From assembly GCA_964531335.1 (NCBI GenBank), contig CAZHEV010000008.1, positions 68,452-132,451 of the forward strand: DNA of 64,000 nt, in the 5' to 3' direction. This stretch comes from an uncultured bacterium (GTDB lineage: Bacteria > Eisenbacteria > RBG-16-71-46 > CAZHEV01). The notes under the pieces were generated by a model that worked only from the letters and a program-made list of their open reading frames with translations, did no database searches and was not told the DNA's origin. The position numbers and the translations under genes were made by a program. Below are positions 4,286 to 40,110 of the stretch, piece by piece (the stretch's first letter is position 1; each line of letters starts with the position of its first letter).

Positions 4286-4663
4286 TCAGCTACCTTCGCG
4301 CGTTCCCGGCTCGTCCGGTCGATCGGCGGACCCACCGCCCCCCACCTGCCCTTCCCCGCCGCCGGCGCGGTCGGGCTCGCCTCGCTTTTCCGGCTCGCCG
4401 GCCGCTCCCGCGCCTGTTTCAGAGCTTTCCCCGCCGGCTTTCTTGGGCCGCGCTCGGGTTGAGGCACCGGGCTTCTTGCCCGTGAGCAGGTCCTGTTGCT
4501 TAGCGACCTCCTGGAACTCGTTTTCTATCTCGCCGGCCGCTCTCTTGAAATCGCGGATGCTCTTGCCGACGGCCCGGGCGACCTCCGGGATCCTGTCGGC
4601 GCCGAAAAGCAGTAGCACGACTAGAAAGAGTATCAGAAGCTCTTGGCTCCCAATGCCGAACAA
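4286..4663 (-). CDS. tatA: twin-arginine translocase subunit TatA/E
   Basis: MFGIGSQELLILFLVVLLLFGADRIPEVARAVGKSIRDFKRA is the canonical TatA TM helix plus amphipathic helix. TTG start with GGAGG at spacing 6. Acidic/Gly-rich tail. Confidence 0.85.
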   Translation of the reverse strand: MFGIGSQELLILFLVVLLLFGADRIPEVARAVGKSIRDFKRAAGEIENEFQEVAKQQDLLTGKKPGASTRARPKKAGGESSETGAGAAGEPEKRGEPDRAGGGEGQVGGGGSADRPDEPGTREGS

Positions 4664-4709
4664 AGTCCGCCTCCATGAGAACGCGACGCGATGCGCGTCT
4701 CGTCACGGT

Positions 4710-6182
4710 CTAAAGCCAACTGCCCAGAGCGCGCTCGGCCTCAGTCACGGCCGACTTCACAGTCGCGGGAACGAGCCCCAGCTCATTCTCAAGCGCCTCG
4801 TGGGTCAATCTGCCCCCTCTCTCCCACAGGGAGACCATCAAAGAGCCGGCATCCGGGTTGAAGCACCAGTCATCTCCAAACCTTGCCCTGAAATAGGACC
4901 GCAGCGAGAAGCCGAGCATCAACCCCCGCAGCCGGTGAAAAGGTCCGAGCAGATCGCCCACACTCCTGAATATCATAGCACCCGCCGACCTGATTCCCAA
5001 AGCCGACCCCAAGACATTCGAAACCGCGGCCCCCAGCCCGGGGCCCCCTCCCTCCTCCACGAAGGCCGCCGCGAAGGCCGCGTCCCTCCTGTACCTCATC
5101 AGCGCCAACATGGCTCCCAGCGGCGGCCATTCCTTGCGCAGCTCGCCCCCATCGAGTCGTTCCAGGAAGGAGCGTTCCAGGAGCAGTCCCTCGAGCAAAT
5201 AGCCCCATGCGTGAGCAACGGCGGGATCGATCAGCCACCTGAGCTCGAAGGGCAACAGCCCGTTCGGATGCGAGTAGTTCAAGGCACGTCCAAGCTCGTG
5301 CACGTACAGCCCCGCATAGTCGAGGGAGTCTCGTCTCTCCCCCAACACAATCACCCGCTTGGGAACGTCCAGCGCCATGCAAAGAGGCGTCCCCAATCTG
5401 CCCTCCGCGCTCTTCAAGTCCATGAGCCGGCGTCGGACCCAACCGACCTCGATTCCGGCCGCTCCGAGCGCGGACAGAACGAGCTCCATTGAGCGCTCGA
5501 ACTCGACCTTGGGCGCCGCGCCCGCGGGACCCGCCAGCCACAGGAGATCGTGCTCCTCGACCAACTCGCGCGGCATATGGCACTTCTTCTTAATAAACCA
5601 TGATAATATATCGCCATAACCATCTGCAGTAGCTTCTAATAGCGACGTCGCAAGCTCGGCTGTTTCCACGACCGGAACGCCCATGCCGCATTCCGCCGCC
5701 ATCGCCGTGGAGTCGAACCCGAGCGCCCCGGACGCTGATGCGGCCTTGGCAAGCGCGTCGGCCGCCGAGCCAGCCAGCGGCAAGCTGGAGCCTCGCCAAA
5801 GCAAGTCCACCTCCGCGCGCACTGACCGATCATCCAGCTCTGCTATGAGTACTGGTGCCCTTCTCAGGCTCGCCTTGCCCACTCCGGGGACGGTCATGAC
5901 GCCTGAGGACTCGGCGGTCAGCAAGGCGTCAAGGGGGCCCGACATCGCGGCGTCTAGGTGGAGCTGGACAAGGTACCGTTCGAGAGGTCCCGGGCCGGCG
6001 CCGGTCACGCTGGGTGTCCAGTTCCCGGGATCCAGTAGGGGTGAAGCTGCGTCGTAGAGATCCCTCACACTGCTGTCGACCTTGACGCCCGAGAGCTGGA
6101 GGAATCTTTCCTCTTCAACAGCCTGGACGAGCTCTTCGAGCTCCATCTTGAAGTCGCGGCTATCTTCGCTTGCCATCGCCAA
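4710..6182 (-). CDS. hypothetical protein (490 aa)
   Basis: Long ORF with consistent GC3 bias. Contains VHELGRALNY, which is not a canonical HEXXH. No family recognised. Confidence 0.5.
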   Translation of the reverse strand: MAMASEDSRDFKMELEELVQAVEEERFLQLSGVKVDSSVRDLYDAASPLLDPGNWTPSVTGAGPGPLERYLVQLHLDAAMSGPLDALLTAESSGVMTVPGVGKASLRRAPVLIAELDDRSVRAEVDLLWRGSSLPLAGSAADALAKAASASGALGFDSTAMAAECGMGVPVVETAELATSLLEATADGYGDILSWFIKKKCHMPRELVEEHDLLWLAGPAGAAPKVEFERSMELVLSALGAAGIEVGWVRRRLMDLKSAEGRLGTPLCMALDVPKRVIVLGERRDSLDYAGLYVHELGRALNYSHPNGLLPFELRWLIDPAVAHAWGYLLEGLLLERSFLERLDGGELRKEWPPLGAMLALMRYRRDAAFAAAFVEEGGGPGLGAAVSNVLGSALGIRSAGAMIFRSVGDLLGPFHRLRGLMLGFSLRSYFRARFGDDWCFNPDAGSLMVSLWERGGRLTHEALENELGLVPATVKSAVTEAERALGSWL

Positions 6183-21435: not shown

Positions 21436-22182
21436 ATGGCACAACTAGACTATCCCACAAGCGGTGCGGGAGAGGAAGGAGTTGAGGAAGCGGGCTTCTT
21501 CACCAGGTGGATGTGGGTATACTTCAGCCCGCGTAAAGCTTTCACCGCCGTGTCGCGGCGCCCGAGATGGGTCGTGCCCTTCGTGCTGCTCATCGTCCTG
21601 TCAGCGGCGATGGCCCACGTGACCGCCCCTATCAACAGGGAGCACATGGCCCAGAGAATAGAGAACAGCGACTCCATCCCGGAGGAACAGAAGGACCAGG
21701 TGCTCGAAAGGATGGCGGGCGGTGGTTCCACCATCAGCCAGTTGGTGAGAATCGGGGGAAGCGCGGTGGTTATAGCGGTAATGCTCTCCGCCCTGGGCGG
21801 GATCTTCCTCCTGATCAACAACATGATTTTCGGGGGAAGCGCGCGCTACGCCCAGACGTTGGGGGCGGCGGTTTACACCTGCCTGATATGGATACCGTCA
21901 TGGATAGTCAAAGTGCCGCTCATGTTCGCCCAGAATACGGTGAACGTCACCATAGGGCCCGCCGCGTTCTTGCCGGCCGAGGCCGAGGGCGGCTTTCTGT
22001 GGGCGGCCCTCACCAGGCTGGACGTCTTCGGCATCTGGCATATAATTCTCGCGTGCATAGCGCTTTCCTGCATCGGAGGGTACTCGGCGAAGAAGGCGTC
22101 CGCGGCCGTGATCCCTCTGTGGCTCATCTACTCGGTTATCGTCACGGTATTTACATGGTTCGGCTACAAACAGCTTGGATAG
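21436..22182 (+). CDS. Yip1-domain membrane protein
   Basis: AAAGGAGG RBS. Five predicted TM helices, with a Yip1-like N-terminal cytosolic segment. Confidence 0.7.
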   Translation: MAQLDYPTSGAGEEGVEEAGFFTRWMWVYFSPRKAFTAVSRRPRWVVPFVLLIVLSAAMAHVTAPINREHMAQRIENSDSIPEEQKDQVLERMAGGGSTISQLVRIGGSAVVIAVMLSALGGIFLLINNMIFGGSARYAQTLGAAVYTCLIWIPSWIVKVPLMFAQNTVNVTIGPAAFLPAEAEGGFLWAALTRLDVFGIWHIILACIALSCIGGYSAKKASAAVIPLWLIYSVIVTVFTWFGYKQLG

Positions 22183-22198
22183 CGGAGAGGGAGAAGGC

Positions 22199-23125
22199 GT
22201 GGCGAAAAGGGATTTCCTGGCTATAACGGACTGGGACAGGGACAAGCTCCTCAAGGTGATCGAGAGATCTCTCGACATGAAAAGGGACACCAAGAAGGGC
22301 GTGGAGTACAGGCCGCTGGAGAGGAAGATGATGGCCATGGTGTTCGAGAAGCCCTCTCTGCGGACCAGGGTGTCTTTCGAGATGGCGATGCATCAGCTCG
22401 GCGGCGGGGCCGTCAACCTGCCGCCGACGGAGATCCAGATGGGGACGCGCGAGTCCCTCCCGGACGTGGCGCGCGTGCTGGGCCGTTACGTCGATTGCAT
22501 CATGGCCAGGGTCTTCTCGCACGACAAGGTGACCGGCTTGGGCGTCCACTCGCCGGTGCCCGTGATAAACGGCCTTTCGGATTACAACCACCCCTGTCAG
22601 GTCGTGTGCGACCTGCTGACGATACTCGAGGCCAAGGGGGTGATCGAGGGACTGAAGGTCGCGTACGTCGGAGACGGGAACAACGTCGCCAACTCATGGC
22701 TCAACGCCGCCTCCCGCCTGCGTTTCGATCTCTCGCTCGTGATTCCCAGAGGCTACGAGCCTGACGAGGCCACGCTGAAGCGGGCCGCGTCCGAGGCCAC
22801 CGGGTCGGTGTCGCTGACCCCCTCCGTGGAGGAAGGGCTGAGCGGCGCCGACGTCGTGTACACGGATGTCTGGGCCAGCATGGGCCAGGAGTCCGAAGCC
22901 AAGCGCAAGAGGCGGGATCTGGAGGCATACAGGATCGACGCGAAGCTGATGTCGTTCGCGAAGAAGGACGCCGTCGTCATGCACTGCCTCCCGGCCCATC
23001 GCGGTGAGGAGATCAGCGACGAGGTCATCGACGGGCCGCAGTCGATCGTCTTCGACCAAGCCGAGAATAGACTTCACGGACAAAAAGGCATAGTATGTGA
23101 ATTGATGATGGAGGATTGGACTTAG
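22199..23125 (+). CDS. argF: ornithine carbamoyltransferase
   Basis: SLRTRVSFE carbamoyl-phosphate binding motif, plus HPCQ and HCLPAHRGEE motifs. GTG start after GGAGAGGGAGAAGG. The track ORF begins at an upstream TTG. Confidence 0.85.
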   Translation: MAKRDFLAITDWDRDKLLKVIERSLDMKRDTKKGVEYRPLERKMMAMVFEKPSLRTRVSFEMAMHQLGGGAVNLPPTEIQMGTRESLPDVARVLGRYVDCIMARVFSHDKVTGLGVHSPVPVINGLSDYNHPCQVVCDLLTILEAKGVIEGLKVAYVGDGNNVANSWLNAASRLRFDLSLVIPRGYEPDEATLKRAASEATGSVSLTPSVEEGLSGADVVYTDVWASMGQESEAKRKRRDLEAYRIDAKLMSFAKKDAVVMHCLPAHRGEEISDEVIDGPQSIVFDQAENRLHGQKGIVCELMMEDWT

Positions 23126-23180: not shown

Positions 23181-24416
23181 GTGAAGCAGGACTACAGCGC
23201 ATTCGCTCTCCTCGACCCTGATTTCTCGAAGAAAAACCGAGGCCAGTTCAGAGTGCTTTTGCGGCTCTACAGGGACATGGCCTCCGCGCCCGAGAGATAC
23301 AACTATCATGTCAACAAGCTGTTGAACCCATTCGTGCTCGATTTGCCCCTCAAGGCCAACCTGGAGACCGTCGGGTTCTACCTGCGCGAGGCCGAGGCTT
23401 ACCTGCAGGGCCTTCTGGACTTGTTGCCGGAGGAGGCCCGGGACTCGTTCGGCCACCACCTGGAGGTGGCCTCCTGCGACGATCCGTTGACGCTGATGAA
23501 AATGTCTTTCACGCCCGGAAACAGGCGAAGGGCCTTCGAGGCCCAGCGCAAGCTGTACCTCGCGAAATTGATATTCGACATCGATAGGTGTCGCGACGTT
23601 CAGGATGGCCTGGAACACAAGTCCTACCTCGAGTCGACCCTCGAGGAAAGACTGTGGTCGAGGACCATATCCACGGAACGCCGTGAGATATGGTACAACA
23701 TGAGCACCGACGGCGTCTCGATGGAATACACCGAGGACCAGGCCAGGCCGGACCAGGAGTGCTGGCAGTTCGACGTCAGGAGGATCCTTCCCCTCTCGGG
23801 CGACCAATCATACCCCATCCACGTCTACTACAACCGCACTCGATTCAAGAAAGAGGTGCTTCCGTTCGAGTACTTCGCCGGGCGAAGGGAGTACAAGGTT
23901 CACGAGCAGAGGAAGTGGTACCAACTGAAGGGAAGGCGAAACGGGGGAATCCTGAGCAAGATGATCAGAAAGGGCGAGAACAATCCCAGGAACATAAGCG
24001 ACATATTGGGGTCGATGTTCATCGTCCACGACAAACGTCAGGTCAAGGGCTTGCTCGACCTGCTATACGATATACTGGGTGCGCCCTACAAGTGGTACGA
24101 CGTGGTCGACACCATAAACAGGCCGGAGGACAGGCAGCTTCTGGACAGGCATTCCGCCCCCGGCTACGAAGTGTACAAGGGCGACGTGGATATTCTCTAT
24201 CCCACGGGCTGGAAGCACTCCCTGGCCTACGCGTTCAGAGTGGAGATCCAGATCTACACGCTGGAGGGATACCTGCGCACGATCCACAGCGCGCACTACG
24301 CCAGCCACCAGGAGTTGAAAAGAAGGCAGTTCCTCGACGGCCTCCTGCCGATCATATTTCCGCCCGCCGTCTACGGCGAACGACAGGTGGACGCGGCCGC
24401 CCTGAGTCGAGGGTGA
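23181..24416 (+). CDS. RelA/SpoT-domain (small-alarmone-synthetase-like nucleotidyltransferase) protein with unique N-terminal region
   Basis: The C-terminal third follows the RelA_SpoT synthetase layout: ISDILGSMFIVHD...GYEVYKGDVD...VEIQIYTLEGYLRTIHSAHYASHQELK (compare GlRvi...GYqSlH...EvQIRT...WAe..H..YK). GTG start. Confidence 0.65.
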   Translation: MKQDYSAFALLDPDFSKKNRGQFRVLLRLYRDMASAPERYNYHVNKLLNPFVLDLPLKANLETVGFYLREAEAYLQGLLDLLPEEARDSFGHHLEVASCDDPLTLMKMSFTPGNRRRAFEAQRKLYLAKLIFDIDRCRDVQDGLEHKSYLESTLEERLWSRTISTERREIWYNMSTDGVSMEYTEDQARPDQECWQFDVRRILPLSGDQSYPIHVYYNRTRFKKEVLPFEYFAGRREYKVHEQRKWYQLKGRRNGGILSKMIRKGENNPRNISDILGSMFIVHDKRQVKGLLDLLYDILGAPYKWYDVVDTINRPEDRQLLDRHSAPGYEVYKGDVDILYPTGWKHSLAYAFRVEIQIYTLEGYLRTIHSAHYASHQELKRRQFLDGLLPIIFPPAVYGERQVDAAALSRG

Positions 24417-24476: not shown

Positions 24477-24719
24477 CTACAATCCATCCAGGTAGGCTTC
24501 GACCAGCTCCCGGGCCCTGGTCTCGAACTTCTCCGGAACGAGCAGGTTGACACCGAGGATGCTGGTGCCGTAACCCGCGCCGGGGCCGAAGACTCCCACA
24601 TCCTCGCCCTTCAACATGGAGGGGATCCCCTCCTGCTCGAGGATGTCCTTCATTTGCTCGCCGTACAGCCGGGACGGAAGCATGCGCACTTTGACCCATT
24701 TCACGTTGTCGTCAGACAA
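24477..24719 (-). CDS. small DUF2007-like (putative signal-transducing) protein
   Basis: 80 aa. TTG start with GAGGGG RBS. Pattern W.KV..L...YGEQMKDILEQEGIP...VNLLVPE..E.RARELVE. Confidence 0.6.
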   Translation of the reverse strand: MSDDNVKWVKVRMLPSRLYGEQMKDILEQEGIPSMLKGEDVGVFGPGAGYGTSILGVNLLVPEKFETRARELVEAYLDGL

Positions 24720-39797: not shown

Positions 39798-39874
39798 CAA
39801 ATTGGACGTCCCCATCGTCTAGGCGGCCTAGGACACCGGCCTTTCACGCCGGCAACACGGGTTCGAATCCCGTT
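39798..39874 (+). tRNA. tRNA-Glu (anticodon UUC)
   Basis: Cloverleaf derived by hand: acceptor GTCCCCA/TGGGGAC, D-arm, anticodon stem CCGGC/GCCGG with loop CTTTCAC, T-arm ACGGG-TTCGAAT-CCCGT, discriminator G, and an encoded CCA. Confidence 0.8.
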
Positions 39875-40110
39875 GGGGACGCCACTTTTATTAGGATAAA
39901 TATGGAAGAGGAATGAGTAATGGGGAGATCTGCTATTTCCTGACAAGAAAGGCGTATAAAAAGGACTTCACTTCTTATTGGATTGAAGTCATAATTATAC
40001 AGAACTTCAGTAATGCAATCGCCGTAATTAATTGCGCCACAATCACTAATAGAGATAAATGGATAAAGTTATTGTCTTGGTCATCGCCCCGGGCCCGGAG
40101 GAAGGAGGTT

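Follow-up and report, generated by a model that had tools for sequence, protein, structure and literature searches.

Enzymes of the RelA/SpoT homologue (RSH) superfamily form the core of bacterial stress signalling. Divergent branches of this superfamily have revealed new chemistry and new biology, as seen in the (pp)pApp made by Tas1, in the toxSAS enzymes that pyrophosphorylate tRNA, and in the exported synthetases. The gene described here appears to represent another divergent branch. It lies in a stretch of 64,000 nucleotides (nt), hereafter the window, from an uncultured bacterium of the Eisenbacteria (GenBank assembly GCA_964531335.1, contig CAZHEV010000008.1, positions 68,452 to 132,451 of the forward strand). 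The protein that it encodes, hereafter the window protein, has a C-terminal part homologous to the synthetase domain of RSH enzymes and an N-terminal part that is predicted to be a helical domain. The original prediction, made from the letters of the window, had described it as a RelA/SpoT-type domain with an altered catalytic motif, fused to an uncharacterised N-terminal region.

The closest described enzymes are the small alarmone synthetases (SAS) RelQ/SAS1 and RelP/SAS2, which are the top structural neighbours of the window protein and share its predicted synthetase fold. In the RelP of Staphylococcus aureus (SaRelP), the adenine of ATP is sandwiched between R78 and R112, its phosphates are bound by K80, S84, K88 and R91 (PMC5794853), D107 and E174 hold Mg2+ (PMC5794853, PMC7983052), Y151 of the G-loop stacks on guanine, and H190 contacts ribose (PMC5794853). 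The window protein has the motif order R..K...S...K..R, D..G, G-loop Tyr, E.Q..T and H..YK in common with SAS, as well as the Mg2+ ligands and the ATP-phosphate binders, and like them it stands alone without HD, TGS or ACT domains. Compared to SAS, however, it carries M279 for Arg, V331 for Ser, K333 for His and Y359 for Arg. It also adds an insert of ~30 amino acids (aa) inside RxK...S, a beta-meander before strand beta1, and a helical N-terminal domain (N-domain) of 160 aa. Additionally, the family is found in Eisenbacteria and Krumholzibacteriota, whereas SAS are found in Firmicutes.

A diverged RSH-type core is also common to this family, the toxSAS (FaRel, FaRel2, PhRel, PhRel2, and CapRel), and the (pp)pApp synthetases Tas1 and Apk, whose cores use non-canonical acceptors (PMC7229694, PMC12691689). 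The operons of toxSAS are defined by a small, conserved, overlapping partner (PMC7229694). CapRel resembles the window protein in carrying an extra domain, a regulatory one in CapRel, in the same polypeptide; here that domain is N-terminal and conserved, and the domain order is reversed. Unlike toxSAS and Tas1, the window gene lies next to neither an antitoxin nor an immunity gene, its product has no domain for secretion or delivery, and its context is not that of a mobile element or phage. The long RSH enzymes (Rel, RelA, and SpoT) likewise have an all-helical region before the synthetase domain, and structures of the N-terminal domain of Rel are among the weaker Foldseek matches (7oiw, 24io). 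In contrast to the long RSH enzymes, the N-domain is not an HD hydrolase, and TGS, ACT or other ribosome-binding C-terminal domains are absent; Pfam gave no matches to HD, TGS or ACT, with HD checked in all 51 members of the family alignment.

Besides RelA_SpoT, the sole named family that was matched by family members is TIGR04552/TIGR04562 of Myxococcales and Bdellovibrio (for example MXAN_4858). These matches were weak, occurring in 39 of 51 members for TIGR04552 and 30 of 51 for TIGR04562, with a best E value of ~5e-7 and 12-26 bits against cutoffs of 125-140. They span the D..G and E.Q regions, and the models, with 352-356 positions, are of similar length. Because the scores are far below the cutoffs, TIGR04552/TIGR04562 is a different family-level clade, and it occupies different phyla. 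A homology search seeded with the relative P0234 towards members of TIGR04552 returned 3 proteins only.

Homology to the alarmone synthetases emerges as the comparison is widened from the single sequence to the family and the superfamily. As a single sequence, the window protein matched the RelA_SpoT model of Pfam (PF04607) with E=0.022 and 15.5 bits, below the gathering cutoff of 27 bits. Its NCBIfam scan gave one match, of 12.4 bits to TIGR04562 and also below cutoff, and phmmer against PDB sequences found no RSH match. When 1.84 billion representatives were searched exhaustively with a profile, 303 relatives were recovered, and the family comprises 281 clusters at 90% identity, all of them full length (~405-480 aa). 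RelA_SpoT was matched by 32 of the 51 aligned family members (E<=1), with a best E of 5.3e-5. Thus the search against PF04607 that the original prediction had proposed falls below threshold for the window protein itself and gives matches across the family. A profile of the family alone found no RSH match in the PDB. Only the profile of a wider superfamily alignment (A2, 66 sequences, reaching ~18% identity) bridged to RSH enzymes there, namely YwaC of Bacillus subtilis (E=1.6e-4), Rel of Mycobacterium tuberculosis (1.7e-3), and RelQ of Streptococcus pneumoniae (8.7e-3). Three real SAS fragments recovered by the A2 profile search were aligned and used as the target of hhalign, which assigned the family a probability of 88.6% (E=2.7e-6) and the superfamily one of 96.4% (E=1e-9). 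In both HMMER and hhalign alignments, GYEVYK of the window protein pairs with GYRS(L/Y)H of genuine SAS, and EIQIYT pairs with EIQIRT.

Structure prediction led to the same fold. AlphaFold2 (AF2), run on the family alignment, produced a model with a mean predicted local distance difference test score (pLDDT) of 87.7 and a predicted template modelling score (pTM) of 0.86. When this model was compared to the PDB with Foldseek, the top 37 matches were all SAS chains (best E=1.9e-4), with a probability of 1.00 for the top 33 and 0.99-1.00 for the rest. They include RelQ of Streptococcus mutans (3l9d), SAS1 (5ded, 5dec, 5f2v) and SAS2 (6fgk) of B. subtilis, and RelP of S. aureus (6ewz, 6ex0, 6fgx, 6fgj), and are followed by catalytic fragments of Rel and by CapRel. 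Since the Pfam matches of the family, the AF2 model with its Foldseek matches, the superfamily profile and hhalign agree, the homology of the C-terminal part to the RSH synthetase/SAS domain is secure and is not a chance similarity. On this point the original prediction was borne out, including its proposed check by structure prediction, with the SAS fold in the model and the active-site Asp, Glu and G-loop Tyr conserved by alignment.

The synthetase-type core extends over residues ~213-400, and the protein ends ~50 residues past the ExQ strand. Residues of SaRelP were mapped onto it by the HMMER and hhalign alignments, and conservation was counted in the 51-member family and the 66-member superfamily. 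On the side of ATP, strand beta1 begins at residue 213 and leads to R221, the equivalent of the first adenine-stacking Arg, R78 (51/51 in the family, 64/66 in the superfamily). The phosphate binders K80, K88 and R91 correspond to R252 (Lys or Arg in most sequences), K260 (65/66 in the superfamily), and R263 (54/66); S84 corresponds to G256, where the window protein has Gly and 45 of 51 family members have Ser. The Mg2+ ligands D107 and E174 correspond to D274 and E355, each found in all 66 superfamily sequences, and G110 to G277 (64/66). The second adenine-stacking residue, R112, is replaced by M279; Met is present in 50 of 51 family members, and Arg is retained in only 13 of 66 superfamily sequences, all distant relatives. 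On the acceptor side, Y151 of the G-loop corresponds to Y329 (Tyr in 48/51 of the family, Phe in 3/51). The Ser and His of GYxSxH are replaced by V331 (51/51) and K333 (51/51 in the family, 64/66 in the superfamily). In the catalytic strand, Q357 takes the place of the Gln of ExQ in 49 of 66 sequences, Y359 that of the Arg of QIRT in 49 of 51 family members, and T360 that of the Thr in 48 of 51. Only three columns of the 66-sequence alignment are invariant: D274, E355, and P394. The insertion loop at residues 224-253 splits the ATP-binding motif RxK...S...K; its pLDDT is 53-69, and it holds 9 Lys and Arg versus 4 Asp and Glu.

Judged by these alignments, the catalytic centre and the phosphate-binding site appear intact, and the changes fall on one adenine-stacking and three acceptor-side positions. 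The altered catalytic motif of the original prediction thus appears to be a change of neighbouring substrate-contact positions, around Mg2+ ligands that do not vary. Because the substitutions hit substrate-contact positions and D274 and E355 are invariant, the window protein probably functions as a pyrophosphokinase whose acceptor pocket has been remodelled, rather than being a pseudo-enzyme.

The region without a counterpart in SAS consists of ~210 aa, formed by the helical domain and the beta-meander of ~50 aa. The original prediction had given it ~290 aa, which is too long; its statement that the region resembles nothing recognisable was upheld, as no Pfam or NCBIfam model matched there in any of the 51 members. 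The N-domain modelled alone reached a pLDDT of 87.8, and a Foldseek search of this lone model against the PDB gave nothing significant (best match with a probability of 0.11 and E=1.9). The idea that it is a degenerate HD hydrolase domain like that of the long RSH enzymes was considered and rejected, there being no Pfam HD match and no PDB match of the lone model, N-terminal domains of Rel included. Mean pairwise identity within the family is 44% for the N-domain versus 58% for the core, and the beta-meander is the least conserved region, with 35%, and is variable in distant relatives. In the helix FEAQRKLYLAK, E120 is found in 61 and R123 in 65 of the 66 superfamily sequences. Moreover, the matches of relatives at ~17-23% identity cover the helical region (profile positions ~40-190) as well as the catalytic one (~250-410). 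Because distant relatives pair the N-domain with an RSH-like core, and E120 and R123 are conserved like catalytic residues, the N-domain appears to be an ancestral part of the superfamily architecture and not a recent fusion. The word fused in the original prediction does not agree with this pairing, which is seen in relatives at ~18-23% identity. The three-stranded meander (residues 161-205) and the basic loop (224-253) are lineage-specific insertions.

Three canonical RSH motif residues and one adenine-stacking Arg are therefore missing from the window protein, which has in addition an obligatory domain with no known fold. Taken together, the alignments indicate that its family is a deep, unclassified branch of the RSH superfamily that is real and conserved. 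Its placement outside the 30 published SAS subfamilies is drawn from sub-threshold scores of hidden Markov models (HMM).

Some distant members of the superfamily have additional domains. In P0204, P0212, P0232 and P0239 (706-742 aa), the N-terminal helical region and the RSH-like module are fused to a C-terminal NUDIX domain, which is MutT-like where tested (P0239). P0239 additionally has a domain resembling xanthine phosphoribosyltransferase (NF006613, E=2e-10). All four keep E120, R123, R221, K252, K260, D274, G277, K333 and E355; R263 is kept in three and is Ala in P0232. E120 and R123 are thus retained in the relatives fused to phosphoribosyltransferase (PRTase) and NUDIX domains. The association with these domains fits a purine nucleotide as substrate and product for the superfamily, as inferred from the domains themselves. 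Because the aromatic position of the G-loop is Leu or Phe in the NUDIX-fused relatives, the acceptors probably differ between clades. The gene of P0204 (locus L084, 6001-8220) has housekeeping surroundings, including photolyase and pyruvate kinase. As a separate observation, P0221, P0231, P0240, P0252 and P0266 (838-890 aa) have the module at the C-terminus behind ~450 residues without a Pfam match. Their hallmarks differ (G277 to Arg, K333 to Arg, and Q357 to Arg), and they are possibly another functional subclass. Also, the P0197 cluster (P0271, P0272) contains a superfamily member of 414 aa that is annotated as hypothetical in Candidatus Uhrbacteria, which extends the superfamily to the candidate phyla radiation (CPR).

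The distribution of the family was scanned with one genome per GTDB species. Relatives were found in 129 species genomes. The best 80 of the 129 are all metagenome-assembled genomes and are labelled mostly Eisenbacteria or Krumholzibacteriota, with other or generic submitter labels on some of them. Identity to the query drops from 46% to 37% in step with the lineage labels. No match was found by tblastn in 50,697 phage records or 72,556 plasmids, in the viral contigs of IMG/VR scanned with alignment A1, or for the family in PADLOC.

Gene neighbourhoods were compared in 62 loci, with genes chosen by the difference in GC content between third and second codon positions (GC3-minus-GC2 score). No neighbour family is conserved throughout the 62 loci, and the neighbours of the family genes are housekeeping genes. 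In the clade of the window (74-100% identity), the order Yip1 - argF - RSH-like gene is kept. A DUF2007 gene on the opposite strand follows in L088 and L090, the match in L090 being weak; DUF2007 is unannotated in L086 and L087, and none was seen in other clades. Conservation of the argF/DUF2007 neighbourhood is limited to the clade of the window. In at least 19 loci of the Krumholzibacteria type, the gene directly upstream, on the same strand and 1-109 nt away, encodes a PLP-dependent enzyme of Cys/Met metabolism (Cys_Met_Meta_PP, E=9e-150). Beyond it there is usually a subtilase of ~1050 aa on the opposite strand, and menaquinone genes of the futalosine pathway lie downstream on the other strand. 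This PLP enzyme (position -1) and the subtilase (-2) in the one clade, and argF in the window clade, are the most frequent neighbours. Two separate syntenies thus both place an amino-acid-biosynthesis gene directly upstream of the RSH-like gene.

From these findings, we consider it fairly probable that the window protein is an active RSH-type pyrophosphokinase that acts on a nucleotide as a signalling enzyme. The protein would be cytoplasmic and compact, with an SAS-type core joined to the ancestral helical N-domain. ATP-Mg2+ would be bound as in RelP and RelQ. A purine nucleotide would stack on Y329, and its 3'-OH, activated by Mg2+ held by E355 and D274, would attack the beta-phosphate of ATP, giving a 3'-pyrophosphorylated nucleotide and AMP. 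Substrate binding would be reshaped by M279, V331, K333 and Y359 together with the basic loop, and possibly by the E/R pair of the N-domain. Because four substrate-contact positions are changed and a basic loop is inserted by the ATP site, the acceptor, and hence the product, may differ from those of enzymes acting on GDP or GTP. The gene is chromosomal, lineage-wide and partner-less, and stands behind amino-acid-biosynthesis genes, which suggests an endogenous alarmone-type signalling enzyme of Eisenbacteria and Krumholzibacteriota that is related to nutrient status, possibly to that of amino acids, given its probable co-transcription with argF or with the Cys/Met PLP enzyme.

A more specific proposal can be offered only tentatively. 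The family may be a deep RSH branch, marked by the E/R pair of the helical N-domain, the His to Lys hallmark and the loss of one adenine-stacking Arg, which makes a pyrophosphorylated nucleotide other than (p)ppGpp or modifies a non-canonical acceptor. It would serve as a lineage-wide synthetase of a nutritional second messenger in Eisenbacteria and Krumholzibacteriota, with TIGR04552 (Myxococcota, Bdellovibrionota), the Uhrbacteria (CPR) forms and the PRTase-NUDIX fusions as sister clades. At the curated RelA_SpoT threshold the family is invisible. Its catalytic centre appears intact and its substrate pocket systematically remodelled, and its partner domain is obligatory. Two uncultured phyla have it as a conserved chromosomal gene, homologous to the TIGR04552 proteins and the PRTase/NUDIX fusions. 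Knowing its product would tell whether a non-canonical alarmone is in use in these lineages, and would give a superfamily of 'hypothetical proteins' a function.

Several points weigh against an active nucleotide pyrophosphokinase with a signalling role. The template modelling scores of Foldseek are modest, at 0.4-0.5 when normalised to the SAS targets, and the family stays below the curated cutoffs of both PF04607 and TIGR04552/TIGR04562. In the adenine-stacking Arg pair R221 is kept and the second residue is M279, and the conserved His of GYxSxH and Arg of ExQIRT are replaced; the geometry of ATP or the chemistry could differ from that of canonical RSH enzymes. The positions of residues relative to the active site are derived from alignment. 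The literature on TIGR04552/TIGR04562 consists of a mutation list of Bdellovibrio and the location of MXAN_4858 near the gliding-motility cluster of Myxococcus, and that family is uncharacterised. In many Eisenbacteria loci the neighbours are unrelated, such as an ECF sigma factor, or metK with a Cys/Met enzyme, and the possible tie to amino-acid metabolism is drawn from gene order.

Other explanations have been put forward for such a protein. The original prediction had raised a toxin-like enzyme, which here would be a self-contained growth-arrest or defence protein comparable to CapRel that pyrophosphorylates tRNA at its 3'-CCA end or makes toxic (pp)pApp, with the N-domain as a cis-inhibitor or sensor. 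One of the Foldseek matches is CapRel (9erv_A, probability 0.95), the protein retains the G-loop Tyr that toxSAS acting on tRNA use, and the extra domain is packed on the catalytic core in a model with a pTM of 0.86. Additionally, the 30-aa loop beside the active site is basic and rich in aromatic residues, and the isoelectric point of the whole 411-aa protein is 8.5. However, a conserved bicistronic or antitoxin-like partner is absent across the 62 loci, in 6 of which a downstream open reading frame (ORF) of ~240 aa was seen. PADLOC, phage, plasmid and IMG/VR matches are lacking, the neighbours are housekeeping genes, and the spread through 129 species is broad, follows the lineages and looks vertical. 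Also, the N-domain is fairly conserved and has superfamily-wide residues, unlike the fast-evolving sensor domains of defence systems, and the domain order is opposite to that of CapRel. A toxin of this kind is therefore improbable.

Even less probable, to a considerable degree, is a catalytically dead pseudo-enzyme that serves as a nucleotide-binding alarmone receptor or in a structural role, which the original prediction had also raised. It would account for the substituted canonical residues (His to Lys, Arg to Tyr, Arg to Met, and Ser to Val) and the sub-threshold Pfam score. It is contradicted by the invariance of D274 and E355 and by the conservation of R221, K260 and G277 at 97% or more, since conservation focused on metal and phosphate binding is a signature of catalysis; with V331 and K333 present in every family member, these residues would be a selected alternative and not decay. 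We also regard it as rather unlikely that the RSH/nucleotidyltransferase scaffold carries out different chemistry, either on an unusual or non-nucleotide acceptor (sugar phosphate, cofactor, RNA, or protein) or as nucleotidyl transfer. This possibility draws on the systematically non-canonical acceptor side (V331, Y359, and K333 as a superfamily hallmark), the loss of one adenine-stacking Arg at M279, and the variation of the G-loop aromatic among Tyr, Phe and Leu across the superfamily. It also draws on the pair E120/R123, which equals the catalytic residues in conservation and might make up a new pocket for the substrate, and on family scores under every curated RSH threshold. On the other hand, the RSH set of pyrophosphoryl-donor residues (R221, R/K252, K260, and R263) and both Mg2+ ligands are kept, the G-loop Tyr is present in nearly all family members (48/51), and the purine PRTase and NUDIX fusions of relatives fit nucleotide substrates.

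The features of the locus are collected in Table 1. The ORF, its motif substitutions, and the argF and DUF2007 neighbours are all as the original prediction had described them. The reading frame is uninterrupted. As deposited, the identical protein (P0001, 385 aa) begins at a TTG at codon 27 (window 23181-23261 region). The start of the long ORF is common to full-length homologues at 74-81% identity, and the invariant residues L11 and P13 lie upstream of the TTG; for these reasons, the GTG at 23181 is the better start, and the public annotation of the gene is probably truncated at the N-terminus. The gap between argF and the RSH-like gene is 55 nt, with both genes on the same strand. No terminator-like or promoter-like site was found in this gap, and a promoter-like site is present upstream of argF at 22019-22046, which makes co-transcription with argF plausible. 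A Yip1-domain gene and an Amidohydro_3 gene (Pfam) lie further out.

Table 1. Positions of the RSH-like gene, its parts and neighbours in the window, and of associated genes in homologous loci (locus coordinates)
Feature	Location	Strand	Basis or remark
Putative RSH-like pyrophosphokinase with N-terminal helical domain, complete ORF	23181..24416	+	411 aa, GTG start
All-helical N-terminal domain, residues 1-160	23181..23660	+	AF2 pLDDT mostly >90
Most conserved N-domain helix FEAQRKLYLAKLIFDIDR (E120, R123, K124, K129)	23535..23588	+	invariant in family
Family-specific beta-meander, three strands, residues 161-205	23661..23795	+	AF2 secondary structure
Strand beta1 of synthetase core, ending in R221 (nt 23841-23843)	23817..23846	+	aligned to R of RxK in YwaC/RelQ
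Basic/aromatic insertion loop, ~30 aa, residues 224-253	23850..23939	+	insert in HMMER/hhalign alignments
Predicted ATP-phosphate-binding helix and Mg2+-Asp strand GRRNGGILSKMIRKGENNPRNISDILGSMFIV (R252, K260, R263, D274, G277, M279)	23931..24026	+	aligned to VKSFESIVNKLMRKG...HDIAGVRI of YwaC
G-loop/beta4 motif GYEVYK, residues 328-333 (Y329, Tyr that stacks on the acceptor; V331 in place of Ser; K333 in place of His)	24162..24179	+	
Catalytic strand EIQIYT, residues 355-360 (E355 Mg2+/catalytic Glu; Q357; Y359 for Arg; T360)	24243..24260	+	
C-terminal helix HSAHYASHQELKRRQF	24285..24332	+	A2 consensus HxxYK = RSH HxxYK motif; H376 in 57/66
argF (ornithine carbamoyltransferase; OTCace_N + OTCace)	22175..23125	+	Pfam E=1.8e-55 and 3.4e-45
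DUF2007 gene, downstream and convergent (context, outside the system)	24477..24719	-	Pfam E=5.8e-7
Cys/Met PLP synteny, loci L027, L038, L043, L044, L046, L049, L051, L052, L055-L057, L063	gene ~4500-5930		
Cys/Met PLP synteny, loci L065, L066, L069, L072, L075, L080	gene ~4500-5930		
Cys/Met PLP synteny, locus L017	4446-5678		
ORF overlapping RSH-like stop codon, L010	7311-8033	+	
ORF overlapping RSH-like stop codon, L015	7281-8000	+	
ORF overlapping RSH-like stop codon, L016	7263-7997	+	
ORF overlapping RSH-like stop codon, L024	3120-3749	+	
ORF overlapping RSH-like stop codon, L030	7383-8192	+	
ORF overlapping RSH-like stop codon, L033	7305-7958	+	

In 6 of the 62 loci, all from Eisenbacteria, the RSH-like gene's stop codon is overlapped by a conserved ORF of ~210-270 aa, which is absent from the window and the other fetched loci. 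Four of these loci show an overlap of 4 nt, L030 one of 1 nt and L033 one of 13 nt, an arrangement suggestive of translational coupling. This ORF gave no Pfam, NCBIfam or PDB-sequence match, and it may encode a clade-specific partner.

No canonical Rel motif (ExQIRT) turned up when the window and the fetched loci were searched for it, in a sample far too small to infer that Rel is absent. The intergenic RNA on both sides of the RSH-like gene has no structure whose stability exceeds that of shuffled sequences. The sole Rfam or ARAGORN match in the 64-kb window is a tRNA-Glu (TTC) at 39808-39884 on the + strand.

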